Part shown: piece after piece, positions 1,501 through 55,450 of the stretch
How positions within the stretch are numbered: position 1 is the stretch's first letter
Layout: every line of letters begins with the position of its first letter
Source: Squalus acanthias
Taxonomy: Eukaryota
Assembly: GCA_030390025.1 (NCBI GenBank)
Contig: CM059444.1
Location: 46,748,001 to 46,812,000, forward strand
Length of the DNA stretch: 64,000 nucleotides
Direction of reading: 5' to 3'
Program-made: the position numbers and the translations under genes
Notes under the pieces: model-generated
Seen by the model: only the letters and a program-made list of their open reading frames with translations
Told to the model about the DNA's origin: nothing
The model's database searches: none

Positions 1501-1705
1501 TTGGTTAAAATAATCCTTAACTAATCATACCGATTGGATGAAGTATTCTGTCATTGTCGAAAGGTAAATGAACCAAAAACCATTTAATTCACTGGACAGG
1601 CAAGAAAAGCTACCCATCAGCAATGAGAAAACAGCACTAAATCAGCTAAGCAAACCACCCAATTAAATCAGTACAGTAATTTATTTTCTTAAACCCAGCA
1701 ATCTG

Positions 1706-1899
1706 TGTCGTAAGAATGAGCCTTACGCGTGGTGAACTTAAAGTAAGCTTTAATCAACTAAAAAGGTGCTACATACAAAAGAGGTCTTACTCTATGCCTC
1801 TCCAGGATCCAACTGCTCAGTCCAGTATTTATCCTGGACTAATCACAGGAAGTGATGCAATAAAGTTCGAGTCACAGGAAGCTGTATTGTGTTACCACA
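1706..1899 (-). repeat. 3' LTR of the Gypsy element
   Basis: Identical by eye to 5953-6146; preceded on the minus strand by a G-run plus AGAA polypurine tract (about 1900-1911). Confidence 0.96.
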
Positions 1900-1917
1900 T
1901 TCTCCCCCCCCAAAAGA

Positions 1918-4900
1918 TTAGGAGGCCGGGATGCTCCCTCCATTTCGTAGCCGCCGGACGAGGGAGAGCCGCACCCGTTTGGGTTCTCGTAGCGGTAGAT
2001 GGCCCCTAGCCCGTTTACCCGCCGCGGGCCGTGGACCAGAGTCCGAGTGATCCAGCCCGCTCTGTGAGGGGTCAGGACGATCCTGACTGTGTACTGGTGC
2101 CCGAACGGGTGTCGGGCAGGGCTGTGGCAGATCAGTTTCCGAGCGTATGGTACGGGGTGGATCATGGCTGCGCGTGCGAGCCCCGACGGGCTCATAGTCA
2201 GTCTGCCCCAGGTCGGCACGCTGGAGTGAGGTACCAGCCGGCGTCAGATCCAGATCGTGATGAGAGGCACCTGGCGAGCCCAGAGATGTGCCTGGTACAA
2301 TATCATCCCCTGGTGTCCCTCTATGTTTCGGCGGGCAGGGAGCCAGATCCCGCAATGACACGGTAGATTCCCGACCGTCAGGATACCGAATATAGGCGTA
2401 GGTAGGGTTGACGTCAGTGAGCTCAACCTCATCTACCAGGGGGTCATTCTTAGACGCCCGAACATATCTTCGGAGTAGCACTGGTCCCGGTGCAGTCAGC
2501 CACGACGGGAGAGATATCCCATAGGATGAGCGACGCTGAAATCGGAAGAACCGTTCATGAGGCGTCGTATTTGTGGCGGTCGAAAGGAGGGACCGTGTGG
2601 AGTGTAATGCGTCTGGAAGTACTGCTTCCCATTGCTGGTTGGGTAGGCCCCGAGATCTCAAAGCCAGGCGTACCGCATTCCAGATGATAGCGTTAAAACG
2701 CTCGACTTGCCCATTCCCGACCGGATGATAAGGCGTCGTTCTGCTGGCAGCAATACCCCGTTCCGAGAGATAGGCCTTGAGTTCTCCTGACATAAAAGAA
2801 GGGCCCCGATCCGAATGAACATAGGATGCCATGCCACAGAAAGCAAATACCTGCTCAAGGCAGCTGATAACCGTGGTCGTCAGCATATTGGGGCAGGGAA
2901 AGGCAAACGGAAAACGGGAATACTCATCGACCATGGTCAATAGATAAGTGTTGCGAGTTGAAGAGGGCAACGGCCCCTTAAAATCGATGCTAAGCCGTTG
3001 CATTGGCTGGGTCGCATGTATGAGTATACCACCCGAGGGGCGGAAAAACTGAGGTTTCAATTCCGCACAGACTCTGCAGTCCGAGCACATCTTCTTTACA
3101 TCCCCGGTAGAGAATGGGAGATTTCGGGACCGCACGAAGTGTAGCATGCGAGTAACGCCTGGATGACACAACCCATCATGGATGTCTACGAGCGTAGAGG
3201 GTGCCATGGCGGAGCAGAATGCTCGTGTGAGGGTATCCGGAGCCACATTCTCCTTGCCAGGTCGATAGTGGATGGTGTAACCAAAAGAGGCCAATTCCAG
3301 CCGCCAAAGCTGGATTTTATTATTTTTAATTTTGGTCCGTTTTCGATTATCGAGCATGAAGGCGACCGATCGCTGGTCCGTGATTAAGGTAAAGTGCTGG
3401 CGAGCTAGGAGATGAGTCCACTTCCGTACTGCCTCTATGATGGCTGTAGCTTCTTTTTCGACTGGAGGATAATGTAGCTCAGCCCCTTGAAAAGTCCTGG
3501 ACAAAAATGCCACCGGACGACCTTCCTGATTCAGAGTGGCCGAGATCGCCACCTCCGAGGCATCACACTCAACGACAAAAGGAAGACTCTCATCGATGGA
3601 GTGAAGAGCCGCTTTCTCCAACTGTTTTTTCAGGAGGTTAAAGGCTGCAACAGCCGCTGTATCTAGTGGGAATGTGCTGGCCTTCAGTAGAGGTTGGATT
3701 CGGTCCGAGAAGTTAGGAATCCATTTAGCATAGTATGCAAACAGGCCGAGGGCCCGGCGCAAGGAGGCCGGATTCTTAGGTGGCGGGAGCTCTTGGAGTG
3801 GGCGAAGCCTTTCAGGGTCAGGTTTAATGATGCCATTGCCCACACAATAGCCAAGGATGTTGATGGTTGGTTGTGACTCAATGGATTTAGCCGCATTTAA
3901 TGTCAAATTACGGTGCTGGAGTGCATCCCAAAATCGTTGGAGATTGGCGTCATGTTCCCGCTGATTGCGACCTGCGACAGTAATATTGTCCAGATAAGGA
4001 AACGTATCCTTCAAGTCTTCCTGTTTGACCAGGTCATCCATTGCTCGCTGGAAGACAGCCACTCCATTAGTGACCCCAAAGGGGAGGCGACGAAATTGAT
4101 ACAGCCGTCCATTGGCTTCAAAGGCCGTATACTGCTTGTCTGAGACCTTCAAGGGTACCTGATGATAGGCACTTTTCAGATCATATGTTGAGAACACCGT
4201 GTACTCAGCCAGTTTATTAACCATATCATCGATGCGCGGCAATGGGTATGCGTCCAAGTCCGTATATTGATTGATGATCTGTGAATAGTCAATGCACAGC
4301 CGTTTCTTGTGAGGTTGTAGAGGGTTCTTAACAATAACGACCTGGGCGCGCCATGGCGACGAACAAGGCTCGATGATATCCTCTGCTAAAAGCCGAGAAA
4401 TCTCAGCCGCAATAAAAGACTGGTCTTCCTGACTGAAACGTCGTGACTTTGTTATAATCGGTTTGCATCGAGGAGGGATACTGGTAAACAGTGAGGGTTC
4501 ATCCAGTGAAGCTGCTGACAATGCACAGAACGGTAATCGAGGTCGTATATTAGAAATAGTGAGTTCAGGTTTGGATCCGCCGAACTCAATGGTGAGCTTC
4601 TTATGCTGCTTTTGAAAATCCAGCCCCAAGATAAGATCACTACATAAGTCCTTGAGCACCGAAAGCCGGGTGGAGGGATACCTGCGACCATTAAGTGTTA
4701 TTTCAACCATACAAAAGCCAGAAATTCTGGTATTAAGTGATGACTGAGCCATCGCAATTGCCTGGTCTGATGGGAAAACATGTAGCTTTAACTCTGCAAC
4801 AATCTGTTCCCTAATGAAACTATCAGTGCTACCTGAGTCAATTAAGGCATCTAAAGTATGTCCATTAATTGATGCTTTTGTAGCTGCATGGAATAGGTTC

Positions 4901-5874
4901 TGAGGACAAGCAGCTGTAATTGGTGTTGTTGCACAAAGAGTGGCTGAAACTCTAGGTGTGTTTCTTCGAGAGAAAACCCGAGAGGAAGCACGATAGATTT
5001 TAGCCGGAACATCTTGATAGGCCCTTACCGGGGCAGTTCGGTAGGACTTAGCTTGATAAGCCCTCGTAGAGGCTCTTGATAGGCAAACCTTTGCAAAATG
5101 ACCCTTTTTGTTGCAATGACTGCAAAACGCATTGCGAGCAGGGCAGAATTTCCAAGGGTGAAACTCATCACCACAAAAGAAGCATTTCTTAGATTGCCAA
5201 GAGGCTGCCACAGTGGGGTCATCATCCTCTTCATCAGTGAAGTCATCAGATTGATCGTCGGGGATAAAGTCCTCCCTAATAGAGTTCACCTGTGGCCTCT
5301 TAAATTGCCTGACTGTAGTTAAGGCAGCAGACCGAGGTCTGGGCACTGTATAAAGGTCTGCATTTCTTTTTGCCAGATCTAGAGAGCAAGCCATGTCATA
5401 AGCTCTCTGAAGCTCAAGTGTCTTACTTTCCAGTAGACGCTGGCGTATAAATGGGGAGGCAAGCCCGCAGATGAAAGCATCACGGATCATTTCTTCACGG
5501 TACAGCTCAGCTGAGGCCGCCTGAAAGTTACAGTCCATACTAAGTCTGCGAAGCTCTTGGAGGAATTTATCAATGGATTCCTCCGGCCCTTGTTGGGCTG
5601 TAGCTAGTAGATGTCTGGCATAGACCTCATTCGGTGTCTTAGTATATAGTCTCTTAAGCTTCCGAATTGCCTCCTCGTAACTGTCCCATTCCTCCACATA
5701 CTGAAATACATTCGGGGTGACACAGTTGATGAGTATCCGCAACTTTGAGTCATCATCAGCCTTACAATATTCCAGAAAATTGTCAAACGTGCGATACCAG
5801 TGTTTCCACACCTTACCGGCTGCTGGGGTGTTTGGGTCCAAGTCAAGACGCGATGGTTTAAGGATGTTTTCCAT
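1918..5874 (-). CDS. Gypsy Gag-Pol polyprotein, 1318 aa, uninterrupted
   Basis: Zinc knuckles (CFFCGDEFHPWKFC, CSHCNKKGHFAKVC), protease LIDSGST, RT (YDLKSAYHQ, LPFG, YLDN), RNase H (VECDAS, EKEATA, TDQR), integrase HHCC and D-D-E (SIDF, HSDRG, GQVER). Confidence 0.96.
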   Translation of the reverse strand: MENILKPSRLDLDPNTPAAGKVWKHWYRTFDNFLEYCKADDDSKLRILINCVTPNVFQYVEEWDSYEEAIRKLKRLYTKTPNEVYARHLLATAQQGPEESIDKFLQELRRLSMDCNFQAASAELYREEMIRDAFICGLASPFIRQRLLESKTLELQRAYDMACSLDLAKRNADLYTVPRPRSAALTTVRQFKRPQVNSIREDFIPDDQSDDFTDEEDDDPTVAASWQSKKCFFCGDEFHPWKFCPARNAFCSHCNKKGHFAKVCLSRASTRAYQAKSYRTAPVRAYQDVPAKIYRASSRVFSRRNTPRVSATLCATTPITAACPQNLFHAATKASINGHTLDALIDSGSTDSFIREQIVAELKLHVFPSDQAIAMAQSSLNTRISGFCMVEITLNGRRYPSTRLSVLKDLCSDLILGLDFQKQHKKLTIEFGGSKPELTISNIRPRLPFCALSAASLDEPSLFTSIPPRCKPIITKSRRFSQEDQSFIAAEISRLLAEDIIEPCSSPWRAQVVIVKNPLQPHKKRLCIDYSQIINQYTDLDAYPLPRIDDMVNKLAEYTVFSTYDLKSAYHQVPLKVSDKQYTAFEANGRLYQFRRLPFGVTNGVAVFQRAMDDLVKQEDLKDTFPYLDNITVAGRNQREHDANLQRFWDALQHRNLTLNAAKSIESQPTINILGYCVGNGIIKPDPERLRPLQELPPPKNPASLRRALGLFAYYAKWIPNFSDRIQPLLKASTFPLDTAAVAAFNLLKKQLEKAALHSIDESLPFVVECDASEVAISATLNQEGRPVAFLSRTFQGAELHYPPVEKEATAIIEAVRKWTHLLARQHFTLITDQRSVAFMLDNRKRTKIKNNKIQLWRLELASFGYTIHYRPGKENVAPDTLTRAFCSAMAPSTLVDIHDGLCHPGVTRMLHFVRSRNLPFSTGDVKKMCSDCRVCAELKPQFFRPSGGILIHATQPMQRLSIDFKGPLPSSTRNTYLLTMVDEYSRFPFAFPCPNMLTTTVISCLEQVFAFCGMASYVHSDRGPSFMSGELKAYLSERGIAASRTTPYHPVGNGQVERFNAIIWNAVRLALRSRGLPNQQWEAVLPDALHSTRSLLSTATNTTPHERFFRFQRRSSYGISLPSWLTAPGPVLLRRYVRASKNDPLVDEVELTDVNPTYAYIRYPDGRESTVSLRDLAPCPPKHRGTPGDDIVPGTSLGSPGASHHDLDLTPAGTSLQRADLGQTDYEPVGARTRSHDPPRTIRSETDLPQPCPTPVRAPVHSQDRPDPSQSGLDHSDSGPRPAAGKRARGHLPLREPKRVRLSLVRRLRNGGSIPAS

Positions 5875-5952
5875 GATGGGTGATTCCCTGGATCCTTAGT
5901 TCCGAGTTCGTCCAAAAAGTTTGAGTGCGAAGTTTTCCAAAGTTGATTAAAT

Positions 5953-6146
5953 TGTCGTAAGAATGAGCCTTACGCGTGGTGAACTTAAAGTAAGCTTTAA
6001 TCAACTAAAAAGGTGCTACATACAAAAGAGGTCTTACTCTATGCCTCTCCAGGATCCAACTGCTCAGTCCAGTATTTATCCTGGACTAATCACAGGAAGT
6101 GATGCAATAAAGTTCGAGTCACAGGAAGCTGTATTGTGTTACCACA
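5953..6146 (-). repeat. 5' LTR of the Gypsy element
   Basis: Identical by eye to 1706-1899; TG...CA ends; ATTAAA poly(A)-signal variant on the minus strand. Confidence 0.96.
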
Positions 6147-6444
6147 ATCTGGTACCAGAAAACCAATCAAAACAACAAATTATCTTTTAAAATTTCTTTC
6201 AGCTGCTATTTTCGTTCCTTCCCTGGTCAGTATATACAGGTAAAAATATTTAATATCAAACATAGAGAAATTACATAAGTATGGAAAAAAAACTAAAATA
6301 AAATAATCTTCCAGTATTGTGATAGACCGTACTGCCAGTCTTCTGAAGGCTCAACACCCTTGTTCATCAAGGGTAAACAGGTGCTCCAGTTTACTATCAG
6401 TTCCAAACCTCTGAAACCAAATCCAAAGCTATGATACAAAATAT

Positions 6445-8019: not shown

Positions 8020-9340
8020 TAAGAACGTAAGAAATAGGAGCAGGAGTAGGCCATTTGGCCCTTCGAGCCTGCTCCGCCATTCAGTAAGATCATGGCTGAT
8101 CTTCTACCTCAACTCCACTTTCCTGCACTATCCCCATATCCCTTGATTCCCTTAATATTCAAAAATCTATCGATCTCTGTCTTGAATATACTCGACGGCT
8201 TAGCCTCCACAGCCCTCTGGGGTAGAGAATGACAAAGATTCAGCACCCTCTGAGTGAAGAATTTTCTCCTAATCTCAGTCCTAAATGGCTGACCCTTTAT
8301 TCTGAGACTGTGACCCCTGGTTCGAGACACCCCAGCCAGGGGAAACATCCTCCCAGCATCTACCCTGTCAAGTCTTGTAAGAATTTTGCATGTTTCAATG
8401 AGATCACCTCTCATTCTTCTAAACTCTAGAGAATATAGGCCTAGTCTACTCAATCTCTCTTCATAGGACAATCTTCCCCATCCCAGGAATCAGTCTGGTG
8501 AACCTTTGTTGCACTCCCTCTATGGCAAGTATATTCTTCCTTAGGTAAGGAGACCAAAACTGTACACAATACTCCAGGTGTGGTCTCACCAGGGCCCTAT
8601 ATAATGGCAGTAAGACGTCTTTACTCTTATACTCAAATCCTTTTGTAATAAAGGCCAACATACTATTTGCTTTCCTAATTGCTTGCTGTACCTGCATGGT
8701 AACTTTCAGTGATTCTTGTACAAGGACACCCAGGTCCCTCTGAACACCAACATTTCCCAATCTCTCACTATTTAAAAAAATACTCTGCTTTTCTATTTTT
8801 CCTATCAAAGTGGATAACTTCACATTTCTCCACATTATATTCCATTTGCCATGTTCTTGCCCACTCACGTAGCTTGTCTATATCCCCTTGAAGCCTCTTT
8901 GCATCCTCCTCACAACTTACATTCCCTCTTGGCTTTGTATCATCAGCAAACTTGGATATATTAATTTGGTTCCCTCATCCAAATCATTGATATAGATTGT
9001 GAATAGCTGAGGCCCAAGCACTGATCCTTGATACCCCACTAGTTACAGCCTGCCAACCCGAAAATGACCCGTTTATTCCTACTCTCTGTTTTCTGTCTGT
9101 TAACCAATCCTCAATCCATGCTAGTATATTACCCCAATCCCATGAGCCCTAATTTTGTTTAATAACCTCTTGTGTGGCACCTTATCGAATGTCTTCTGAA
9201 AATCCAAATATACCACATCCACTGGTTTCCCCCTTATCTATTCTGCTAGTTACAACCTCAAAAAACTCCAAGAGATTCGTCAAACATAATTTCCCTTTCA
9301 TAAATCCGTGCTGACTCTGCCCAATCCTATTATTATTTTC
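8020..9340 (-). mobile_element. CR1 (HER1-like) LINE, 5'-truncated
   Basis: RT C-terminal peptides (LVRPHLEYCVQFWSP, RRMRGDLIE) in broken frames; typical 3' UTR and tail. Confidence 0.9.
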
Positions 9341-14409: not shown

Positions 14410-16403
14410 TGACTAACTAAAGAAGTTAGGGATAGCATTATATTGAAAGAAGAAGCTTCTAATGTTGCGAAGAATAGTAATAAGCCTGAGGATTGGGAGT
14501 TTCAGAAACCAGCAAAGGATGACCAAAAATTGATAAAAAGGGAAAGAATAGAATGAGAGAAAACTAACAAGAAATATAAAAACAGATTGTAAGAGCTTCT
14601 ACAAGTATGTAAAAAGGAAGAGGAGCAAAAGTAAACGTTGGTCCCTTAGAGGCTGAGACAGGAGAAATTATTATGGGGAATAAGGAAATGGCAGAAACGT
14701 TAAACAAATGTTTTGTATCTGTCTTCACAGTAGAAGACACAAAAAGCGTACCAAAAATGGTGGGGAACCAAGGGTTGAATGAGGGTGAGGAACTTAACGT
14801 AATTAATATAAGTAGAGAAAAAGTACGAGAGAAACTAATGGGACTAAAAGCCGACAAATCCCCTGGACCCGACGGCCTACATCCTAGGGTTCTAAAAGAG
14901 GTGGCTGCAGAGATAGTGGATGCATTGGTTTTGATCTTCCAAAATTCCCGAGATTCTAGAATAGTCCCAGCGGATTGGGAGGTAGCAAATGTAACACCGC
15001 GTTTCAAGAAAGGAGGGAGAGAGAAAACAGGAAACTACAGGCCAGTTAGCCTGACATCAGTTGTCAGGAAAATGCTGGAATCCATTGTTAAGGAAGTGGT
15101 ATCAGGACACTTAGAAAATCATAACATGATTAGGCAGAGTCAACATGGTTTTATGAAAGGGAAATCGTGTTTGACAAATATATGGAGTTTTTTGAGGATG
15201 TAAATAGCAGGGTAGATAAAGGGGAACTAGTGAATGTAGTATATTTGGATTTCCAAAAGGCATTCGATAAAGTGCCACATAAAAGGTTATTACACAAGAT
15301 TAGGGCTCACGGGGTTGGGGGGTAATATAGTAGCATGGCTAGAGGATTGGTTAACGGACAGAAAACAGAGAGTAGGGATAAACGGGTCTTTTTCAGGTTG
15401 GCAGGCTGTAACTAGTGGGGTGCCGCAAGGATCAGTGCAGGGGCCTCAACTATTTACAATCTATATTAATGACCTAGATGAACGGACCAAGTGTAATGTA
15501 TCCAAGTTTGCTGACAATACAAAGCTAGGTGGGACAGTATCCTGTGAGGAGAACACAAAGAGTCCGCAAAGGGATATAGATAGACTAAGTGAGTGGGCAG
15601 TAAGGTGGCAGATGGAGTATAATGTAGGGAAGTGTGAGGTTATTCACTTTGGTAGGAAGAATAGAAAAGCAGAATATTTTTTTAAATGGTGAGAAACTTT
15701 TAAATGTTGGTGTTCAGAGAGTTTTCGGTGTCCTCGTGCAAGAAACACAGAAAGCTAGCATGCAGGTACAGCAAGCAATAAGGAAGGCAAATGGCATATC
15801 GGCCTTTATTGCAAGGGGGTTGGAGTATAAGAGTACAATTTTACAGGGCCTTGGTGAGACCACACCTGGAGTACTGTGCACAGTTTTGGTCTCCTTATCT
15901 AAGGAAGGATATACTTGCCTTGGAGGTGGTGCAACGAAGGTTCACTAGATTGATTCCTGGGATGAGAGGGCTGTCCTATGATGAGAGATTGTGTAGAATG
16001 GGCCTATACTCTCTGGAGTTTAGAAGAATGAGCGGTGATCTCATTGAAATATACAAGATTCTGAAGGGGATTGACAGGGTAGATGCTGAGAGGTTGTTCC
16101 CCATAGCTGGAGGGTCTAGAACTAGGGGGCATAGTCTCAGGATAAGGGGTAGGCCATTTAAGACCGGAGATGAGGAGGAATTTCTTCACTCAGAGGGTTG
16201 TGAATCTTTGGAATTCTCTGCCCCAGAGGGCTGTGGATGCTGAGTCTTTGAGTACATTCAAGGCTGCGATAGATAGATTTTTGGACTCTAGGGGAATCAA
16301 GGGATATGGAGTTGAGGTCGATGATCAGCCAGGATCGTATTGAATAGCGGAGCAGGCTCGAGGGACCGTATGGCCTACTCCTGCTCTTATTTCTTATGTT
16401 CTA
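14410..16403 (+). mobile_element. CR1 (HER1-like) LINE, 5'-truncated, frameshifted ORF2
   Basis: KSPGPDGLHPRVLKE, NYRPVSLTS, GVPQGS, FADN motifs; tail TTCTTATGTTCT. Confidence 0.92.
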
Positions 16404-21151: not shown

Positions 21152-23267
21152 GTGTGTGCGAAGGGGAGGTAGAGTGGAAGATAACTCCTTGAATTCAGAC
21201 ACAGAAATCAATATTTCAATCCAGAAACACACTTGCTAAGTTTATGTTGCCAGTTTCTAAAAATAATGGTTTATGGTTTAAATTTTAAAAGTGTTTCATA
21301 GAGGTTGCCATATTGAGGAATAATGAAATGCCTCTGGCCAGATCGTGAGAATGAGTCAGTCATAAGAGGAACTTTTCCACTTTGTTCAATAGTTCTTTTA
21401 ATATCCCTCTTGTCTATTAATCTTTGTTACATGCTGTAGACATGAGCAGTGAATCAGGACATGCTCACCAAACACCTTTGTGGAATTTTAATGAGTGTGT
21501 GATGCAATTGCAAAGTACTCTTTTAGAACATGAAATACTTCTATAGATTACAACCTACATACAATGATTCAATGTGAACATAAAAATGATATATTATCCA
21601 AGTAAAATTGCAAAATAAATCCTTTAACCCATTGGCTCAACTTTTAAACAAATTTAGTAGTCCAATATATATATGTGCTATTAATACACTTGGAGTTAGA
21701 TAAGAACATAAGAAATCAGAGCAGGATTAGGCCATTTGGCCCTTCGAGCCTGCTCCGCCATTCAATAAGATCATGGCTGATCTTCCACCTCATCTCCACT
21801 TTCCTGCACTATCCCCATATCGCTTGATTCCCTTAATATTCTAAAATCTCCTCATCTCAGTCCTAAATGGCTGACCCCTTATTCTGAGACTGTGACCCCT
21901 GGTTCGTGACACCCCAGCCAAGGGAAACATCCTCCCTGCATCTACCCTGTCAAGTCTTGTAAGAATTTTGTACATTTCAATGAGATCACCTCTCATTCTT
22001 CTAAACTCTAGAGAATATAGGCCTCGTCTGCTCAATCTCTCCTCATCCCAGGAACCAGTCTGGTGAACCTTCGTTGCACTCCCTCTATGGCAAGTATATC
22101 CTTCCTTAGGTAAGGAGACCAAAACTGTACACAATACTCCAGGTGTGGTCTCACCGGGGCTCTACATAATTGCAGTAAGACATCTTTACTCTTATACTCA
22201 AATCCTCTTGCAATAAAGCCAACATACCATTTGCTTTCCTAATTGCTTGCTCTACCTGCATGCTAACTTTCAGTGATTTGTGTACAAGTTCACCCAGGTC
22301 CCTATGAAGACCAACATTTCCCAATCTCTCACCATTTAAAAAATACTCTGCTTTTCTATTTTTCCTACCAAAGTGGATAACTTCACATTTCTCCACATTA
22401 GCCATATTCTTGCCCACTCACTTAGCCTGTCTATATCCCCTTGAAGCCTCCTTGCATCCTCCTCACAACTTACATTCCCACCCAGCTTTGTATCAGCAGC
22501 AAATTTGGATATATTACATTTGGTCCCCTCATCCAAATCATTGATGTAGATTGTGAATAGCTGAGGCCCAAGCACTGATCCTTGCAGTGCCCAACTAGTT
22601 ACAGGCTGCCAACCCGAAAATGACCCGTTTATTCCTACTCTCTGTTTTCTGTCCATTAACCAATCCTCAATCCATGCTAGTATATTACCCCCAATCCCAT
22701 GAGCCCTAATTTTGTTTAATAACCTCTTGTGTGGCACCTTATCGAATGCCTTCTGAAAATCCAAATACACCACATCCACTGGTTCCCTCTTCTCTATTCT
22801 GCTAGTTACAACCTCAAAAAACTCTAACAGATTTGTCAAACACGATTTCCCTTTCATAAAACTGTGTTGACTCTATTATTATTTTCCTAAGTGCCCTGTT
22901 ACCACATCCTTAATAATAGATTCTAGCATTTTCCCTACTACTGATGTCAGGCCAACTGGTCTGTAGTTCCCAGTTTTCTCTCTTCCCTCCTTTCTTTAAT
23001 AGTGGGGTTACATTTGCCACCTTCCGGGAACCGTTCTAGAATCTATGGAATTTTGGAAAAATGACAACCAATGCATCCACTATCTCTATAGCCAACTCTT
23101 TCAAAATCCGAGGATGCAGGCCATCAGGTCCAGGAGATTTATCAGCTTTCAGTCCCATTAATTTCTCCAGTACTATTTTTTTTTACTAATACTAATTCTT
23201 TCAGTTCCTCATTCTCCACTATTTCCAGGAAGATTTTTACCTCTTCTTCTGTGAGGGCAGACACAAA

Positions 23268-33285: not shown

Positions 33286-34390
33286 CATAAGAACATAAGA
33301 AATAGGAGCAGGAGTAGGCCATTCGGCCCTTCGAGCCTGCTCCACCATTCAATGAGATCATGGCTGATCTTCTGCCTCAACTCCATTCACCGGCCCTATC
33401 GCCATATCCCTTGATGCCCTTACTAGTCAGAAATCTATCGACTTCTGGTTTGAATATACCCAATGACTGAACCTCCACAGCCCTCTGGGGTAGAGAATTC
33501 CAAAGATTCACCACCCTCTGTGTGAAGAAATTTCTTCTCATCTCAGTCCTGAATGGCCTACCCTTTATCCTGAGGCTGTGGCCCCTGGTTCTAGACTCCC
33601 CAGCTAAGGGAAACATTCTCCCAGCATCCATCCTATCAAGCCCTGTAAGAATTGTGTGTGCTTCAATGAGATCCCCTCTCATTCTTCTGAATTCAAGAGA
33701 ACACAGGCCTAGTTTACTCAATCTCTTCTCATACGACAGTCCCACCATCCCAGGAATCAATCTCGTGAACCTTTGTTGCACTCCCTCTATGGCAAGTATA
33801 TCCTTCCTTAGGTAAGGATACCAAAATTGTACACTGTTCTCCAGGTGTGGTCTCACCAAGGCCCTATATAATTGGAGTAAGACTTCTTTACTCCTGTACT
33901 CAAATCCTCTTGTAATGAAGGCCAGCATACCATTTGCCTTCCTAATGGCTTGCTGCACCTGCACATTCACTTTCAGTGACTCATGTACAAGGACACCCAG
34001 GTCCCTTTGAGCATCTGCATTCCCCAATCTTTCACCATTTAAGAAATACTCTGCCTTTCTGCTTTTTCTACCAAAGTGGATAACTTCACACTTATCCACA
34101 TTATATTCCATCTGCCATGTTCTCGCCCACTCACTGAGCCTGTCGAGATCCCCTTGAAGCCTCTTCACATCCTCTTCGCAACTGACACTGCCACCTAGCT
34201 TTGTATCATCAGCAAATTTGGAAATGTTACATTTAGTCCCTTCATCCAAATCATTGATATAGATTGTGAATAGCTGGGGCCCAAGCACCGATCCTTGCGG
34301 TACCCCACTAGTCACAGCCTGCCATCCTGAAAAAGACCCGATTATCCCTACTCTTTGTTTTCTGTCTGTTAACCAATTCTCAATCCATGA
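33286..34390 (-). mobile_element. Young CR1 (HER1-like) 3' fragment with open 312-aa RT C-terminus, nested in another CR1 3' end (about 33195-34935)
   Basis: ORF 33377..34315 with GVPQGSVLGP and FADD; tail at 33286; host CR1 resumes at about 34390. Confidence 0.9.
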
Positions 34391-34687
34391 GATTCCCCAT
34401 AGTCCTGCAAATTTTTCCTTTTCAAGTATATATCCAGTTCCCTTTTGAAAGTTACTATTGAATCTACTTCCACCACCCTTTCAGGCAGTGCACAATAACT
34501 CGCTGCGTAAATTTTTTTTTTCCTCGTGTCCCCTCTGGTTCTTTTGCCAATTACCTTAAATCTGTGTCCTCTGGTTACCAACCCTTCTGCCACTGGAAAC
34601 AGTTTCTCCTTATTTACTCCATCAAAACCTTTCATGATTTTGAACACCTCTATTAAATCTCCCCTTAACCTTTGCTGCTCAGAGAAC

Positions 34688-39373: not shown

Positions 39374-41094
39374 TTGTGCTCACGCACCTGGGTTCAGTGC
39401 CGCAAAAGGTTCAATGATCTGCTACTCTCAGCAAAAGTGAGTATAACATCACACTTACCTTCAATCTGCTCCCCATCTCCTCTCATCACCAGCACTCTGC
39501 ATTGTCAACCTACTCCTGCACATCCCAACTTACCCTTACATCCCTTGCACCCTTAACCATCCCTCTCTATGTATAGAATCACTCCACCATTCTACTATGC
39601 ACCCCTCACACTCGCTATCACTGTTATGCAATGGCAACAACTAACAACGCACAGGGAGGGCCCTTGGTATTGGCACCTCACTCCATCTTTGTCTTCCTCT
39701 AAGGATCTATGCTATGGATTCTCTACACTCACTCCAACATTCTCGCTCAAACTCCACTTGCGTCCCTCATTGCATGAAGAGAGAGCCCACAATAAGAGGA
39801 GGACAGGAGGAGGGCCACCTTCCATGGCGCACTTGACCACCACTGAGGAGGCTGCTATCGACATCGTCGGAGGTGCTGAGGAGCTGGAAGTGGGGGACGG
39901 AGAGACGGGCACAGTAGAGCAAGCTGGTGACAGAATAGATTTGCAACCCTCTCATTTAGATTGCATGAGTGACTGATATGGCATCTGATGTTCATACAGA
40001 TTGAGTTCTGATCATCTGCGCAATTGGATGTGTCTGCTACGTTAATATCACGTCTAACTCATGCCTTTACTCCCCCACAGGACCATCGAGAGCCCCCCTC
40101 CCCATTGTTCAGGAGGAAGAGCCAGAAGACTCCTCAGAGGAAGCTGCAACCTGAGGGTGCAGTGTCAGCAGAATTGAGCACACCCAGCACCAGTGCAGAG
40201 ACGCACACCTCGGTGGGTCATTCGCGAGATAGATTAGTGTTGTCACCTGGTGTATCACAGCTCACAAGTAAGCATCAGCAGATGGTGGAGACAAGGACAG
40301 CAGTCGAGAGTCCTCGTCGGAGGGCGCGGGACGCTCCTAGCTCTGCTCAGCTGCATGTGGACGCTGTGCCTCTGGGGCCATCCAGAAAGAGAGCGGTGCT
40401 GGAACTTCAGGAACAAGTGCAGGAGTCTCTGACAGGGTTTGCAACCACTGTAACTGCGAGAGTGCACAGAATGGAGGAGTCCATCTCAAACATGAGCAAT
40501 GCCGTGGTGCACTCAATGGCAAATGTAGGTGCCGCCATTGAAAGGATGGCAACCTCCATGGAGGACATAAATCGCCAGACGCAAATGAACATGGTGACTC
40601 TTCTAAATAGATGGCCTGCTATGGAGGATAGATGGGCATCTATTGAGGAGAGGAACCAGAGGTACATGGACGTCCCCGTTATGAGGACTGTCAGTACAGA
40701 GACGGATCCTCATGGCCCCACTGATGTGCAGCAAGGTGCTCTCCAGCTACTTGCTAGCAGTGAAGTGCGGGTGACCCATGAGAGAGATGTTGGTGGTCGA
40801 CAACAAGGAAGTGTGGGCTCCTCTCCAAGTGCTCACACTCCCATGCCACTGTGGAGCCCTCGGTCACAGTCCCAGACTCCTCACCCAACTGAGATGGCCA
40901 TCTCAGCCCCTGCACAGCCGCAGGAGGAACAGACTGTTGCCGAGCCCTCTCAGGCTCTCAAACCCAGAGGACGCCCGCCAAAGACGTCGAAGCAGGTGCA
41001 GCATGGAAGTGAGCAAGGTGCCTCAACATCTGCTGAAGCCACAGGGGAAGCACCACGTAGAAGCACGCGCAAGAGAAAGCTAACACACAAATAG
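39374..41094 (+). pseudogene. Harbinger Myb/SANT-like DNA-binding protein gene, 5'-truncated, spliced
   Basis: RTWVQCRKRFNDL then donor gtgagt (about 39437); middle exon RRTGGGPP (about 39776-39927); last exon after cccacag at 40081 ending in basic PRRSTRKRK. Confidence 0.75.
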
Positions 41095-41379
41095 TCACAA
41101 GGGTAGTCACTTGGTGTTTTGATCTAATACAGAGTGAAGATACTCATCATTATTTCAATTGTAATAAAGAAATGCGATGGCAAAGATTCAAAGAGTTGGC
41201 CTATGTGTGCTCAGAAATGGAAGTGTCACAGTGAAGGGTCAGGGCGCCATTCCTCTGTAATGATGGTGGTGAGAGTGATAGGAACCCACAGTTTATTGTA
41301 CAGATGCTGTATGGTGTATTAAGAAGGTCGGCCAGACACTTATTTCCATGTGCCAGCCACATGTGTTTGCTGCGTAAAC

Positions 41380-42519
41380 TTACGCGAATCTGGCATGGAT
41401 TAGTGCATCCCTTGCCTCACGGCCAGCAATGTGCTCGCGTGCTGGTGGAACTGGCACATCCGCCTCCGCAAGGTCTTCCTCCTCCGAGGAGGAGGAGGCT
41501 GTGCGCTGAGCCACTTGTTCCTCAGGCAGCGGTAAGCCACGCTGCTGTGCGATGTTGTGCAGTGCACAGCAGACCATGATGATTCTGGAGACCCTGGCTA
41601 GTGCATACTGCAGGGCTCCACCAGATCAGTCGAGGCATCTGAATCGCATTTTGCTTCTGGTGGAAATGTGGCTCACATTTGTACCGCTCCTCGGCTTCAT
41701 TTGATGGCCTCCTCATCGGTGTCATTAGCCACGTCTTCACGGGATAGCTCTTGTCTCCAGGTAGCCATCTGGAAAGTTGGGTTGGCAGATTGAACAGCTG
41801 AGGCACAGTAGACTGCCGCAGGATGAACAGGTCATGGCAACTGCCAGGGAATTTGGCGCAAACATGCATAATGTTCTTCCTGTGGTGTTACACCAGCTGG
41901 ACGTTAAGGGAGTGGAAGCCCTTGCGGTTGACAAATACAGCCGGGTTATGATGGGGTGCCCTAATGGCCACATGTGTGCAGTCTACGACGCCCTGCACCC
42001 TTGGGAAGCCTGCCATATTTGCAAAGCCAACCGCATGCACGGTTACACTCGCTTCATCCGTGGAGAAGTGGATGTAATTGTGCGGCTTTGCAAAGAGGGC
42101 ATCGGTAACCTGTGTGATGCAAGTGTGTGCGGCCGACTGGGAAATGCCGCTGATGTCTGCTGCTGATCCCTGGAAGGACCCTGAAGCAAAGAAGTTGAGT
42201 GCGGTGGTGACTTTGACAGCCACTGGTAAGGAGTGTCCACCCGCTCCTCTGGGCTCCAGGTGTTGGTGCAGCATTGTGCAGATGTCAGTGACTACCTCTT
42301 GCGAAAGTTTCAGCCTCCTTTGGCACTGCTGCTCACTCATGTTGAGGAAGCTCATCCTCGGCCTGTAAACCCTGTGTTGGGGGTATCTCCTGCGGCGCGG
42401 TGCAGCCCTGCGCTGACGCCCTCTGCCGCATCAGGTGGGTGAGAAGGTTGGCGCTCCTGCCGCGGCTGCTCTTCCTCCGATTCTGAGGACCAGGATAAGA
42501 GGGTATAAATGGTTCCCAT
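41380..42519 (-). pseudogene. Harbinger (HARBI1-family) DDE transposase, frameshifted
   Basis: [49 protein letters not shown] spread over broken frames. Confidence 0.9.
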
Positions 42520-44955: not shown

Positions 44956-47900
44956 GTCATTACCCCTCTGAAACGGACTCTAACTTCAGGATTTAGCACA
45001 TGCGCAGCTAAACGTGGAAATCCTAAAGTTGCGGTCAGTCATTCACTGCGCTGTGGAACCCCCCCCCCCCGCCTAGTCAGCAATCAGTGGAACAGATGAA
45101 AACTTAAGCTTTTCCGCACTAATATCGCTGTTAAACACCCCATTAAATGTTCAGCCTTGTTGGAATACATGTAACTGGGGTTTTAATAGAATATTGACTG
45201 CTAAGTAACTGTACAGGCCCTGAAAAATAAATTTTATTTGTGGAATTTCAAATTTCTCCATGATAAAAATTACTAGAATTTTTTTTTAAACTTTTTTTTA
45301 AAAGTTTGTTCATGATATTTCAGCTTCTACCTTAACCCCATGTGTATACCCCAATCTTTATTTCGCTCTCTATAACATTTTTAAAAAGTGCAGATAATCA
45401 GTGCTTTTTATTTCCTGGTTTGCTGTCTGTGAGAATTCTTTAATGTGTTTGGCTGCTAAGACAGCTTGATGACATCACTGCTGTTCTTCGCTGGAGTTTT
45501 GACAGCACTACAATCAATTTCACGTTGATGAAGCTAAAGTTCTCGTGAGATCACTGTGGGCAGCTTTCTTCAAGGTCAGCGACGATCGCCGTCGCTTCAC
45601 CGCTGACTGCAAATTGCGGGACAATGTCAATTTTGAGATCTTGGTCATTAACATGGTCAAAAAGAGGTTCTTAATCATTTTTGGCCAATCAAAGTGTATT
45701 TTATTTCTGTTCAAGGCGAAGGATGTCATTGCTGCTGAGAAGAACACTTTCCATTTCAGGCACCAGTGACAGTATCAAAACATGCCCGAGCCAAATACAG
45801 TATAGTTAGATGAAGATTAAAGCCCCCGATTGTCTGCTTTAACAATGCATCTTAGAAGAGCACCACCAGCTGCACCAATGTGGCATTTTTAAACTTCCCA
45901 CACCAACTAACCTGTGGCCTAAGTGAGCTTCTCAATTTATTATCAATTGGTGCCAAATGTTTCAAACCGTTTTCTGCCGTGGCTCCCATCTTCAAGTTAG
46001 TGGGTGCAGGGAGGCAGAAGAAAATTAAAGCTAAAACTGAAGGAAAATAGGTTGTTTCATTTATTTTAAATTGTGATTTTAGTTTAGGGTCAATGTTACA
46101 GTAATAAAGCTGTTCATGAGTTTGAGCACATTTATTATTGTATTTTATCAGCATCACAGTGGAGGAGTTGAAAACATACAAAAATGGTTGGACCAGGAGA
46201 TAAGTTTCCCCAAACCTGCCAGCAATGGTCAGGGGCTGAAGGGCACCAAACAAAATTACAGGGAACATTGCCTGCCAGTAGTCCGAGAGTTATAACCTTC
46301 AGATAGACAACTTTGAACTGCACTGCCCATCTTCAACAACAATAGTGTTGGAAGAATGTTTTTCTCTAAACCACAGGCTTTCAAACTGGGGTCTTTGAGA
46401 AGTTCTAAGGGGGCCACTAATTTCCAAATTTTCTGTATTTGCTGACTTATTAGCATATTAATTCTGTTGCATTTAATTCAGATGTTTTCTACAATGATGG
46501 TAGTGTACTCCTTTGCTTGCTGACACTGTCTGTCAGAAGCATGGGAAGGGAGTTCCCTGAAGTGTGTCAATATTTGCAGGGAGTCCCCCACACAGAAAAT
46601 TTCAAAAACCACTGCTCCAAACTAGTCTGAGGTATTATGCAAATATATGCTATCATAACTTTAAAAATAAGTAGTGCTGGACTGGCAATAATTTTAGCAA
46701 CCACCTGCCTCTGCAACCAAATTCAGACACAATCCACCGTTGTTGAGGCTCCAAGGCAGCTGACCCAGTTATCTCAAGTGCCTAAATTTCCTCCTCTAAA
46801 CTGCAGCTCTAAATTGGCCAACTGCTGCCTCAATCTTTGCCGCTACTGTCCCACTGCCTGTCATTTCTTGCTTAGGTTTCTATGCTGCATCTGTCACCCT
46901 GACTCTCTTGGATGTTCACAGCTTCTCCAACGTCCTTGCACATCACAATCTACTTCTATCTCCTTGTTGCTCACAGCCCTCACTAACCTTCCTGCTGTCC
47001 ACAACCTTCTGTGACATCCTTGTCGCTGACCTTCCTCATGTATACTGGACTTCACCAACCCTATACAGAATCCAACCTCCTCCAATCTTTCTCAACAATC
47101 CCAGAACCACCACTGGTTACCCCCATTCATCATGCCCTTACTGCAATGACTTCATTACCAAGTCTAGCTCTCTGCCTCTTGTCCAGGTAATTTAAGTTAT
47201 GCCCTTGTGTCCAATTGTGTTTGTACACTGGCTGCCGTACTGGACCCAAGCCCCCTCCACTATACTTTTGCACATCTTAGTCCTGCTCCACTATTTCTTG
47301 CTCTCCATTTTTCCTTTAATGCCTTTTCTTTTTTTCAAGCAACATTTCCCATCCAGCTCCCAGCCACCCTTATTCTTCTTGCAGATCAATCCCTTCCCCT
47401 GCTGCTGTTCAACTTCTCGAGTCGCTTCTGGGTGATCTTCAGCCTCCTTCTGCTCAACCATTGGTGTTGCCTGGCACACCAACCAATGCTAGCTCTTCCT
47501 GAGTAGCAACACCAACTGGTGCATCTCTGTCTCCTGGCAACAATCCCATCCTTCTTCAACCTTCTCCCTCCCCAACCTCATTAGCGAGTCATATACGACC
47601 ACTTGCTGCATATTGCCCTTCAAAATGTTCATTCCTTTGTGAGCAAGGTCACCACCATCCACAACCTCATCGTGTATGAATGAATTAGCATTTTGCTGCT
47701 GACAGAAATCTGGCTTATAGACGGTTATTTTTTCTTCCTCACCTTGCCCTTTGATCTTTTCACTCTGACCTCATTCATGTCCATCCCCTTCCCCCTTAAC
47801 TCTAGTAGTGGCGGCAGAGCTTAGACCCATTTCAGTTATAGTGTGTGGGACTCCCTCCCCGAAATCCCTCTGACCCAAAGCCTTAAAAAGCCTTCTCAAA

Positions 47901-48790
47901 AACCATCTCCTCAACCAAGCTTTTGATCCACTCTCCTAACACGCACACAAATACTCAATATATGTTCCGCTTCCTTGCCTCTGATGCGCCTTGGGATGTT
48001 TTACTATGTTAAAGGCATTACATAACGGCACATGATTCCTTTCCGATCCATTTAAACTACATGTTATCTCTCCCCCATGGCACTGTTGTAACCCACTTCC
48101 CATCTGGTACTTATTGCCCCCACCAATTTCAACCCAGAGATAAAATTAATAATCACCTAAAAAGCCGTGGATTGAGTACAGCCATATGATGTAAAAGGCA
48201 AGTCGTGTCTGACAAATTTAATAGAGTTTCTTAGGCAACTAACGGACTGTATTCACAAAGGAAATGCCATGGATGTTGCGTATATAGATTTTCAAAAGGC
48301 TTCGGGAGGCAGACTGCTTTAAAGGGAGTGTTACAGTATGGATAGGAAGCTGGCTGAAGGACACAAAACAGAGAGCAATGGTTCATGGATGTTTTTTGGA
48401 TTGGGGGAATATAAGCAATGCTAACCTCCTGAGGTCTGTGTTGGGAACATCAAGATCTGGATTGGTACAGGGGGCAACATATGAAAATATGTAGATATTT
48501 TGAGCGTGGTTAACTGTGGAGAGAACTGTAAGCAGTTTCAGGAAGATACAGACAGGTTAGTAGATTGGACAGATAGATGTCAAATGAAATTTATCATAGA
48601 GGAATGTGAGATGATACATTGTGATTGGAAGAATAAGGACATGTACACTAAATGGTAAAAATGGAAAAAGAGCAGAGACATAGAGGTCTGGATGCACACA
48701 TTTCAAAATGGGATGGCAAGTTAACAAAGTTGTTTAAAAATAAACGTCTGTGACCGTAAGTTTTATAGACTACAAAAGCAAACAGATGAT
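44956..48790. repeat. Tandem duplication, copy 1 (MITE, hAT-like MITE, L2 fragments, CR1 fragment)
   Basis: Colinear with 48791-55100 including unique flanks. Confidence 0.88.
46374..46614. mobile_element. hAT (Charlie-like) MITE
   Basis: Ends resemble CAGTGGTTTTCAAACT (caggctttcaaact / tttcaaaaaccactg); the duplicate is split by the CR1 at 50060-52788. Confidence 0.5.
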
Positions 48791-50059: not shown

Positions 50060-52788
50060 TCATAGTAATAGTGCATCAGCGAATAAGGGGAAATCAGGGA
50101 CTAATAGTAAAAAGTTAAAATTAAAGGCTATTATCTGAATGCACAAAGCATTCCAAACAATATAGATGAATTATTGGCACAAATAGAGATAAATTGGTTT
50201 GATTTAATAGCCATTACAGAGACATGATTGCACGATGACCACGGTTGGGAACTAAATATTCCAGGGTACTTGACTTTTTGAAAAGACAAGCAGAATGGAA
50301 AGGAGGGGGGTAGCCCTGATAATAATGGATGACTCAAGGACAGTAGTGAGAAAGGACCTTGGCTCAGAAGGTCAGGAAGTAGAATCAGTATGGGTGGAGA
50401 TAAGAAATAGAAATAACAAGGGGCAGAAAACACTGGTGGGAGTAGTTTATAGGCCCCCTAACAGTAGCTATATCATTGGACAGAGTATTAATCAAGAAAT
50501 AATAGGAGCTTGTAACAAAGGTAATGCAATAATCATGGGGGACTTTAATCTTCACATAGACTGGGTAAATCAAATTGGCAAAGGTAGTCTGGAGGACGAC
50601 TTCATGGAATGCATTCGAGACAGTTTCCTAGAATAATATGTGATGGAACCAACCAAGGAACAGGCGATTTTAGATATTGTATTGTGTAATGAGACAGGGT
50701 TAATTAGTAATCTCATAGTAAAGGATCCTCTGGGGAAGAGTGATCATAATATGATAGAATTTCATTTTGGGTTTGTGAGTGAAATATTTCAGTCGGAAAC
50801 GAGAGTCTTAAACTTAAATAAACTAATTACATAGGTATGAGGGGTGAGTTGGCCAAGGTAGATTGGGAAATTTAAAAGGTATGACAGTAGTTAAGCAGTG
50901 GCAAACATTTAAAGAAAAATTCTAAAATTCTCAACGAATATACATTCCATGGAGAAATATAAACTCAACAGGAATTTTTTTTCCATCTGTGTCAACTAAA
51001 GAAGTTAAGGATAGTATTAGGTTAAAAGAGGCTTATAATGTTGTGGAGAATAGTAGTAAGCCTAAGGATTGGGTGGGCTTTAGAAACCAGCAAAGGATGA
51101 CCAAAAATTGATAAAAAGGGAAAAAATAGAATGAGAGTAAGCTAGCAAGAAATATAAAAACAGACTGTAAGAGCTTCTACAAGTAAAAAGGAAGTGAGTA
51201 GCAAAAGAAGCGTTGGTCCCTTTTAGAGGCTGAGACAGGAGAAATTATAATGGGGAAACAAGGAAATGGCAGAGCCTTTAAACAAATATTTTGTATCTGT
51301 CTTCACAGTAGAAGACACAAAAAGCATACCAAAAATAGTGGGGAACTAAGGGGCTAATGAGAGTGAGGAACTTAAAGTAATTAATATCAGTAGAGAAAAA
51401 GTACTTGAGAAACTAATGGGATTAAAAGCCAACAAATCCGCTGGACCTGATGACCTAAATCCTAGGGTTCTAAAAGAGGTGGCTGCAGAGATAGTGGGTG
51501 CATTGGTTGTGACCTTTAAAAATTCCCTAGATTCTAGAATGGCCCCAGTGGATTGGAAGGTAGAAAATGTAACCCCGCTATTCAAGATAGGAGGGAGAGA
51601 GAAAACAGGGAACTACAGGCCAGATAGCCCGACATCAGCTGTTGGGAAAATGCTGGAATCCATTATTAAGGAAGTGAGAACAGGGCACTTAGAAAATCAT
51701 AATATGATTAGGCAGAATCAACATGGTTTTATGAAAGGGAAATCATGCTTAACAAATTTATTAGAATTTTTGAGAATGTAACTAGCAGGGTAGATAAAGG
51801 GGAACCAGTGGAGTGCAGTATATTTAGATTTCCAAAAGGCATTCAATAAGGTGCCACATTAAACGTCGTTATGCAAGATAAGGGCTCATGGGGATTGGGG
51901 GTAATATATTAGCATGGATAGAGGATTAGTTAACAGACAGAAAACAGAAAGTAGGGATAAATGGATCATTTTCAGGTTGGCAGGCTGTAACTAGTGGGGT
52001 GCTGCAAGGATCAGGGCTTGGGTCTCAGCTATTTACAATTTATATTAATGGCGTAGATGAAGGGACCGTGTTTAATGTATCCAAGGTGACGACACAAAGC
52101 TAGGTGGGAAAGTAAACTGCGAGGAGGACACAAAGTGCCTGCAAAGGGATATAGACAGGTTAAGTTAGTGGACAATAAGGTGGCAGATAATGTGGGGAAA
52201 TGTGAGGTTATTCACTTTGATAGGAAAAATAGAAAAACAGAATATTTTTTAAATGGTGAGAAACTACTAAATGTTGGTGTTCAGAGAGATTTAGGTGTCC
52301 TCGTACAGGAAACACAAAGTTAGCATGCAGGTACAGCAAGCAATAAGGAAGGCAAATGGAATGTTGGCCATTATTGCAAGGGGGTTGGAGTACAAGAGTA
52401 AGGAAGTCTTGCTACAATTGTACAGGGCTTTAGTGAGACCACACCTGGAGTACTGTGTACAGTTTTGGTCTCCTTATCTGCCTTAGAGGCAGTGCAACAA
52501 AGGTTCACTAGATTGATTCCTGGGATGAGAGGGTTGTCCTATAAGGAGAGATTGAGCCTATATTCTCTGGAGTTTAGAAGAATTTGGAATTCTCTACCCC
52601 AAAGGGCTGTGGATGCTGAATCGTTGAGTATAGATAGATAGATTTTTGGGCTGTAGGGGAATCAAGGGATATGGAGATCGGGCGGGAAAGTGGAATTGAG
52701 GTCGAAGATCAGCCATGATCTTATTGAATGGCGGAGCAGGCTTGAGGTGCTGTATAGCCTACTCCTGCTCCTAATTCTTATGTTCTTA
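50060..52788 (+). mobile_element. CR1 (HER1-like) LINE, APE domain to 3' tail, frameshifted
   Basis: VYRPP, MGDFN, LGKSDHN and RT motifs; tail TTCTTATGTTCTT; empty site visible at about 46456-46461. Confidence 0.92.
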
Positions 52789-54364: not shown

Positions 54365-54640
54365 CATTTAATCTGTTTTAATGACGCTGACTGAGGGATA
54401 AATATTAGCCAGGGCACCAGAGATAACTCCCCTGCTCTTCTTCGAAATATCGCCATGGGATCTTTTACATCCACCTGAGAGAGCAGACAGAGCCTAGGTT
54501 TAATGTCTCATCCGAAAGACGGCACCTCTGACAGTGCAGCACTCCCTCAGTACTGCACTAGAGTGTCGGTCTAGATTTTTGTGCTCAAGTCTCTGAAGTG
54601 GAACTTGAACCCACAACCTTCTGACTCAGAAAAGAGAGTG
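54365..54640 (-). mobile_element. tRNA-derived DeuSINE (SacSINE1-like)
   Basis: Reverse complement of 63858-64000, including B box GGTTCAAGT. Confidence 0.8.
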
Positions 54641-55450
54641 TAACAGTATGGATAGGAAGTTGGTTAATTGACAGAAAACAGAGTAGGGGTTAATGGATGT
54701 TTTTTTGGATTGGGAGATATAAGCAGTGCTATCATCCTTGGGCCAGTGTTGGGACCATCAAGTTCTGGATGGGTACAGGGGCCAAATATGAAAATATGCA
54801 GATATTTTGAGTGTGGTCAACTGCGGCGAGAACTGTAAGCGGTTTCCGGAAGACACAGACAGGTTAGCAAATTGGGCAGATAGATGTCAAATGAAATTTA
54901 TCACAGAAAAATGTGAGATGATACATTTTGATTAGATGAATATGGACATTTACACTAGTTGGTAAAAATTTAAAAAGAGCAGAGAGACACAGAGGTCCAG
55001 ATGCACAAATCTCGAAGTGGGAGGACAAGTTGACAAAGTTGTTTTTAAAAAAAAACAAAGGTGACCCTAGGTTTTAGACTACAAAAGCGAAGAGATGATG
55101 CTAAAATCTATACAAATCATTTGTTAGGCCTCAGTTAAAATATTGTGTCCAGTTTTGAGTGCCTTACTTTAAGAACGATGTCAAGTCTATGAAGAGGGTG
55201 CAAAGATTCATTAATATGATACCAGGGATGAAAGGCTTAAGTTAAAAGGAAATATTAGAGAAACTGGTGTTCTTTTCATTAGAACAAAGAAGATTGGAAG
55301 ATCTCATGGAGATGTTCAAAATTAGGAGGCGTTTTGATGAGTTAAATAGGGAAAACTCATTCCACTGGTCAGCGAGTCAGTGGGCATAAATTTAAGATTA
55401 AGATTATCAGCCAAAGAACAAAGGGAGACATGAAGAGAATTTTTTTCCAA
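54640..55450 (+). mobile_element. Degraded CR1 RT fragment
   Basis: Similar to other CR1 copies; first part duplicated at about 48330-48790. Confidence 0.75.

Follow-up and report, generated by a model that had tools for sequence, protein, structure and literature searches.

Predicted Tf1-like self-priming in a Mag-related clade of Ty3/Gypsy retrotransposons

[quoted passage not shown] Directly observed were the pairing, which starts 1 nt past the LTR end and co-varies across families, and the position of the clade outside the chromoviruses. Judged from these sequence features, the best reading is Tf1-like self-priming, probably of independent origin, in a Mag-related Gypsy clade, and we consider this reading likely. 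A preliminary description of the same DNA had proposed that the element primes itself; the exact complement, the co-variation, and the lack of a PBS for a tRNA 3' end support that proposal.

The element is 4,441 bp long, with identical LTRs, a 5-bp target-site duplication (TSD), and a single ORF (Table 1). The order of Pfam domains in the ORF (protease, reverse transcriptase (RT), RNase H (RH), integrase) is that of Ty3/Gypsy elements (Metaviridae), and so are the TG...CA termini of the LTRs, a TSD within 4-6 bp, and the presence of a polypurine tract. The best relative of the ORF among solved structures is Ty3 Gag-Pol (E 1.7e-58), and no Pfam match to a chromodomain was found in the ORF. The element had been described as intact, with a YLDN RT and without a chromodomain, and the identical LTRs, the TSD, the one ORF, and the Pfam results confirmed this. 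The acidic residues of RNase H are present in the sequence of the ORF. The YLDN active site lies at 3986-3997 of the window (minus strand; amino acids 634-637 of protein P0001), in a family with numerous young, intact copies; the second aspartate of the RT active site seems dispensable in the clade. The U3 part of the LTR holds repeated CTTCCTG/CAGGAAG motifs, which we presume to be ETS-like.

Table 1. Coordinates of the element and its features in the window, listed in the order of the element strand
Feature	Position	Strand	Remarks
TSD, upstream copy	6147..6151	-	CAGAT on element strand
5' LTR	5953..6146	-	194 bp, TGT...ACA; 0 differences from 3' LTR
TATA-like box GATAAATA	6073..6080	-	inside 6-bp palindrome 6086-6067; putative promoter role
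Predicted self-primer segment AGTTGATTAAA	5996..6006	-	last six bases are the sole ATTAAA of the LTR
U5-end hairpin	5956..5974	-	6 bp and one G-U; within chance, not conserved
PBS TTTAATCAACT	5941..5951	-	1 nt past LTR end
gag-pol ORF, single	1918..5895	-	first ATG 5874, 1,318 aa; Gag, protease, RT (YLDN), RNase H, integrase
Gag double zinc knuckle (two CCHC)	5083..5184	-	aa 238-271; kind also found in tRNA-primed Mag-type elements of the same genome
Polypurine tract	1900..1911	-	–
3' LTR	1706..1899	-	194 bp
TSD, downstream copy	1701..1705	-	CAGAT, as at 6147..6151

A query consisting of the LTR and leader yielded 1,619 candidates in the 3.7-Gb genome; the best 40 of the 1,619 were scored, and all were near-identical. 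The family of this element, family A, is young and abundant. One of its loci (L204, G000:C1:565500-575499) is a head-to-tail array with three identical LTRs, a period of 4,247 bp, and a PBS after each LTR. With internal regions between its LTRs, the array resembles the single-LTR tandems of Tf1/Tf2, as the available part of PMC11042837 describes them.

Other repeats are present in the window. Two ORFs on opposite strands (40012-42430; a nuclease-like ORF at 41888-42430, minus, and its partner at 40012-41094, plus) resemble what we take to be a PIF/Harbinger transposon. Fragments of LINE reverse transcriptase, presumably CR1-like, occur in both orientations at 8109-8877, 14613-15203, 22336-22872, and 33377-34480. 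A local duplication (46447-48685 and 52775-54992, spaced by ~6.3 kb) is 87-97% identical, and a 45-nt inverted repeat at 1-142 is 93% complementary, with arms 52 nt apart.

On the sense (minus) strand of the element, the 5' LTR ends with ...TTACGACA at 5953 and is followed by a single A at 5952 and then by TTTAATCAACT (5951-5941). No TGG tRNA-type site directly follows the 5' LTR end, which bears out the earlier statement that a PBS for a tRNA 3' end is missing. The LTR segment AGTTGATTAAA (6006-5996) is the exact reverse complement of the PBS; the pairing is 11 nt long, ends on both sides, and encloses a loop of 44 nt. TTAGTT is found at 6008-6003, and the ATTAAA at 6001-5996 is the only A[AT]TAAA hexamer within the LTR. 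The coordinates, the exact complement, the stop of pairing, the loop length, and the positions of both motifs were all reproduced as they had been given in the preliminary description. An 11-nt complement at offsets 0-5 was obtained in none of 500 dinucleotide shuffles of the LTR. Of 63,680 positions in the whole window, only 44 are preceded, within 194 nt, by an 11-nt complement. Folding of the 88-nt region gave z = -2.28. A 6-bp stem inside the loop, also described earlier, is present where it was said to be (5974-5969 with 5961-5956) but carries no signal, as 34 of 200 shuffled loops fold equally well. Scanning 5800-6200 with Rfam produced no hit at E up to 1. Contigs of runs X1, X2, X3, X5, X6, and X10 (assembled contigs, mostly only presumed to be RNA) show a variant LTR whose primer segment is one base longer (window 6005 / 1758) and which has ~11 other differences; it would extend the pairing to 12 nt. 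Among the eight sequencing runs compared with the element, the single run of raw RNA reads gave 0 matching reads, and neither a transcript start or end nor a poly(A) tail was listed for the others.

Within this genome, both arms of the pairing were kept in all 30 fetched copies of family A. Family B (L031-L060), which was found with a homologue query, is ~82% identical in RT-RH, has a different LTR, and pairs over 13 nt; of 30 copies looked at, both ends were located in 25, and the TSD is 5 bp in 24 of these. A pattern that fixed just the ends of both arms had 3,422 matches in the genome, compared with 25 for the control, and revealed further families, with the pairing of family C being 12 nt long. 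In subfamily B', both arms have changed. Where the fourth primer base in the LTR is C (27 copies), the PBS has the matching G in 24; the remaining three are stray A, B, or C copies. Nine of the 12 copies with the T/G combination belong to B', and both of those that were opened retain C in the 3' LTR, as expected if the T arose by CpG decay after insertion.

Relatives elsewhere were collected in a metagenome scan that matched at least 601 stretches, of which 372 were confirmed and 80 kept; 22 of the 80 contained the Gag start and at least 25 nt upstream of it. Together with four elements of this genome, 26 loci were tested. Pairing was complete (11/11) in 16 loci and reached 10/11 in five more; the other five (L072, L084, L085, L122, and L126), none of which has an LTR pair adjoining the gene, lack the signature. 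The 21 signature loci represent about 14 families and 10 distinct PBS 11-mers. These 11-mers pair with their own LTRs at 108 of 110 positions, compared with a mean of 80.1 for permuted partners (0 of 100,000 permutations, relatedness being ignored). One pair differs between L061 and its family mates L064, L070, and L093, and it is changed in both LTRs and in the PBS; one pair likewise differs between the sister families L062 and L063. These close pairs, and B' versus B, are separate compensatory events. The comparison of the PBS with the LTR segment in relatives, which the preliminary description had put forward as a check, thus came out in favour of the duplex: complementarity is retained while the letters differ (21 of 26 loci, B', L061, and L062/L063).

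The pairing is also well separated from chance at most single loci. Of 13 loci put through the shuffle test, 12 reached at most 1/500; L130, a decayed element whose LTRs are 84% alike, failed the perfect-match test (362/500). The intact arm of L105 is located in its 3' LTR. In families with the signature, perfect pairings are 11-16 nt long and start 1 nt after the CA of the LTR, most relatives pairing over 12-16 nt. An AG is found exactly 11 nt ahead of the predicted cut in nine of the 10 variants.

These data also bear on whether a host tRNA fragment might be the primer. A cut in the D-loop of tRNA-Ile(AAU) would leave its 5' 24 nt, which could pair with the PBS through AGUUGGUUAGA. The earlier proposal to look among host tRNAs for a partner of the PBS therefore gave a divided answer: the D-loop of tRNA-Ile does pair with the PBS at 11 of 11 positions (two of them G-U; predicted -10.9 kcal/mol, versus -10.1 kcal/mol for self-pairing), an outcome named beforehand as one that would count against self-priming, but it fails on most relatives, with true mismatches to six of the 10 PBS variants (the comparison being with the tRNA-Ile of this genome only). 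In this genome the D-arm motif occurs at 42 sites, some of them within tRNA-Ile genes, and half-tRNA primers exist in copia lineages, according to the part of PMC6317226 available. Against a tRNA primer, the change in B' weakens the pairing with the tRNA while self-pairing is kept, and the sole genomic site with an exact AGTTGATTAAA in a D-arm context (L199) was not called a tRNA (the best 63 of 369,166 candidates were scored to sample the host tRNA set). Moreover, a primer pairing in trans would leave the LTR unconstrained, and a tRNA thus cannot explain why the LTR segment follows the PBS. We regard priming by a tRNA fragment as very unlikely. The primer segment and the bases next to it do resemble a tRNA D-loop (AGTTGGTTAGAGC in tRNA-Ile); that a captured tRNA piece was the source of the self-primer is speculation.

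If the element primes itself, the 6006-5996 segment would be part of the transcript, situated at its 5' end or close to it, and would fold back onto the PBS across a loop of 38-66 nt. A cut after ...TTAAA, probably made by the RNase H of the element as in Tf1, would free a 3' end. RNase H is reportedly required for Tf1 self-priming, a result ascribed to Levin (1996). The RT would extend the primer through U5 and the rest of R and would then jump to the RNA 3' end, and the RNA would therefore have to be polyadenylated downstream of 5996; ATTAAA would be the only canonical signal in family A able to direct polyadenylation there. Plus-strand synthesis would copy the primer, passing changes in the LTR segment to the PBS, and such copying would by itself explain the matched changes in the two arms. 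The corresponding steps in Tf1/Tf2, as given in the portions available of PMC10085805 and PMC5341516, are pairing of the PBS with a self-primer that forms the 5' end of the RNA, within a three-duplex structure, a cut of this primer by the RT, and priming; the copying of the Tf1 primer site into the cDNA end appears in the available part of PMC11042837.

The families of this genome (A, B, B', and C) each have a TATA-like box 74-92 nt upstream of the primer segment, reading GATAAATA in family A and TATAAATA at the equivalent position in the other three; none of the 11 metagenome loci tested has such a box. The box lies within a short palindrome in each of the four (window 6067-6086, minus strand; L032, L413, and L417). 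In a vertebrate, a TATA box so placed would start transcription ~45-60 nt ahead of the primer segment, which questions 6006 as the start and points to an earlier one. The AG at -11 in nine of the 10 variants fits an initiator. In most relatives, pairing passes 1-5 nt beyond the AG, and, with total lengths of 12-16 nt, the 5' end of the primer would thus not be fixed at the A. Two placements appear about equally probable: the primer may be the first 11 nt of the RNA (start at 6006), or it may form the 3' end of a longer 5' RNA piece whose TATA-driven start would be near 6050. A spliced primer was rejected on inspection: the GT at 6037 and the AG at 6006-6005 bound just 33 nt, and their removal would shorten the pairing.

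The preliminary description had further suggested that the primer and the poly(A) signal are the same nucleotides. In family A such double use is plausible from the sequence, since the LTR has no canonical hexamer other than ATTAAA and the RNA must end beyond 5996 for strand transfer to occur, but it is no rule of the lineage: among 14 loci, an A[AT]TAAA is inside the primer segment in seven, just downstream in three, and missing in four. A Tf1-like three-duplex pretzel was not found in the 14 loci, where loop folds were matched by 11-187 of 200 shuffles and complements between leader and loop were 4-6 nt long.

The position of the hexamer allows the duplex to be viewed differently, as a structural or regulatory stem that hides the ATTAAA lying near the promoter in the 5' LTR or aids packaging, with another RNA or a protein serving as the primer. 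The PBS arm would indeed cover the only canonical hexamer of the LTR in its 5' copy alone, the TATA-like box suggests that the segment is internal to the RNA, and co-variation demonstrates pairing rather than priming. A stem of this kind leaves unexplained that pairing begins 1 nt past the LTR end in all signature families, where the 3' end of a primer must sit, and that it is kept in the seven of 14 loci with no A[AT]TAAA in the segment; moreover, no TGG or other primer site remains. We consider a purely structural role unlikely, while masking and priming are compatible and can both be true.

Phylogenetic placement was studied in RT-RH trees, the references being unnamed eukaryotic Gypsy elements in prokaryote assemblies and IMG/VR, without Tf1 or sushi-ichi themselves. 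(Eukaryotic Gypsy elements occur in many prokaryote assemblies of the GTDB collection, L257-L340, evidently as contamination.) A chromodomain scan was positive for nine of 14 comparison proteins, and Chromo or SH3_Tf2-1 was found in 0 of 34 members of the clade. The same PBS test found TGG sites in tRNA-type controls, and L311, a full chromodomain element, has a 10-nt self-complement after its LTR. In every tree the clade was a single group (100) with a long stem branch. A tree with one poor Mag-type row (SH-aLRT 88) and a tree with no Mag-type row (92/84) set it, weakly, beside the chromoviruses. This placement was gone once Mag-type rows were added: with two such rows of this genome, the clade joined them at 100/98, and the chromoviruses were set apart at 99/99. 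With the long outgroup removed and a mixture model applied, the clade and the Mag-type rows were joined at 96.

The Gag of the clade matched five of six Mag-type loci (E 1e-18 to 3e-9); of the other reference loci it matched only L307, over the knuckle. Four of the Mag-type loci have the double knuckle, and two (L418 and L422) have TGG tRNA sites and YLDD. The label "Mag-type" is our assumption from the features of these loci of this genome, no named reference having been compared, and we likewise take a Gag with a double CCHC knuckle and a homologous capsid region, both present here, to be a feature of the Mag lineage. The Mag-side RT-RH placement and the Gag homology make an origin of self-priming separate from Tf1/sushi likely but not proven. 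A chromodomain-less offshoot of the Tf1/sushi group that inherited self-priming would have the same signature and a 5-bp TSD, and the long stem branch, which hampers placement, and the weak chromovirus-side trees leave it some room. The joining of the clade to the two Mag-type rows, also under the mixture model, the lack of Chromo and SH3_Tf2-1 in its members, the Gag matches, and the rejection of nesting in the group of the self-complementary chromovirus L311 (p-AU 0.0003, for a group named after the trees were seen) all argue against inheritance from Tf1/sushi, which we judge extremely improbable. The suggestion that the element belongs to a separate Gypsy lineage thus held in part: the clade is outside the chromodomain elements in the trees but is related to Mag-type elements and is perhaps an already named clade.

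Searches of this genome for chromovirus-type elements gave 16 short-frame matches for Chromo and 0 matches for DUF4939 (an uninformative probe). Four of the six SH3_Tf2-1 loci that were opened carry a retrovirus-like YVDD, and retrovirus-like pol stretches with YVDD were also seen elsewhere in the genome (L206-L210).

At E <= 1e-50, 605 proteins were found among 7,999 candidates, with Palaemon, Trichuris, Caligus, Armadillidium, Clavelina, and Xenia as named hosts, and with Acropora, Montipora, and Porites among the members of the protein clusters; all of these relatives are represented by their proteins. The RT motif, followed in 121 proteins, was YLDN in 77, another Y/FxDN in 10, and Y/FLDD in 23, with 11 giving no match to the pattern. 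No relatives were found in IMG/VR. Cluster members carried no element names, names in the protein atlas were generic, and the YLDN motif was not found as text in the supplements that were searched (text files only). MolGy3, MolGy11, PolGy1, and LGF7-9 are placed in the Mag lineage in the parts of PMC6238403 and PMC8556966 available, and the clade may therefore be catalogued already, e.g., as MolGy3/11. Troyka and Saci2/lennie, which are likewise animal LTR lineages with short LTRs, were rejected as its identity. In Troyka the termini are CG and the TSDs 3 bp long (PMC12440569, available part), as opposed to TG...CA and 5 bp here, and Saci2/lennie has 4-bp TSDs and tRNA sites (PMC12471100 and PMC4558846, available parts), as opposed to 5 bp and no tRNA site; specifically, the tRNA-Leu-type PBS of Saci2/lennie was not found in this element.

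Like Tf1/Tf2/Tj1 and Tf1/sushi elements generally, the element has no tRNA PBS and has a short (11-nt) LTR segment complementary to a PBS beside the LTR end; like Tf1/Tf2, it has a single ORF. Unlike Tf1/sushi, it has no chromodomain, a YLDN RT, a double CCHC Gag, an LTR of 194 bp, a loop of 44 nt, and no three-duplex structure that we could find; its clade is placed outside the chromoviruses, and the location of its primer at the RNA 5' end is only predicted. The element likely works like Tf1 but is not a member of Tf1/sushi. With the Mag lineage it shares short LTRs, a double zinc-knuckle Gag, Gag homology, and an RT-RH position as sister to the Mag-type elements of this genome. It differs from these, which have TGG tRNA sites and YLDD, in the self-complementary PBS, the mostly YLDN motif, and the long stem branch of its clade. 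Self-priming has likewise been predicted for the TAR lineage of plant Ty1/copia (Houba, Osr-1) and for Tcn1, from a complement that measures 10 nt or more and begins 0-5 nt past the LTR (available part of PMC6317226); these cases indicate that the design arose outside Tf1/sushi before. Neither is related to this clade, TAR belonging to another superfamily, in plants, and Tcn1 being a chromovirus. Odd primer sites are also described for Skipper (PMC5006619) and bivalve TRIMs (PMC6934838), in the parts of these papers available. In the open-access literature that we searched, we found no report of self-priming in an animal non-chromovirus Gypsy clade.

A fuller account can be offered only tentatively, and taken as a whole we hold it to be possible but doubtful. 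According to it, a large Gypsy clade with a YLDN RT, spread across animals, would have evolved self-priming on its own, its Mag-type ancestors having been primed by tRNA. The design would be compact and unlike that of Tf1: there would be no pretzel, the primer would be released by a cut after TTAAA within a longer 5' leader, and six bases would have several roles in the vertebrate families, as the primer end and as the poly(A) signal of the 3' LTR, and in the 5' LTR they would be masked by the PBS.

Self-primed reverse transcription is described as the hallmark of Tf1/sushi chromoviruses; it has also been predicted for plant copia elements, and proof of it is known only from a yeast element unrelated to this clade. 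If it arose separately in the Mag-related Gypsy elements found in corals, crustaceans, nematodes, tunicates, and a vertebrate-sized genome, loss of the tRNA primer would be shown to be easy and recurrent. The self-complementary PBS would also account for the failure of PBS finders to detect these elements. Since the family is very young and has a high copy number, the origin of the primer, the start site, and the cleavage should be readable from endogenous RNA and cDNA. If the proposal is true, the thousands of near-identical copies would mean that the design is now running in a vertebrate-sized genome. With regard to host control, 3' tRNA fragments should not be able to block elements that have no tRNA site through that site, and such elements would, if the proposal is true, escape silencing by tRNA fragments.
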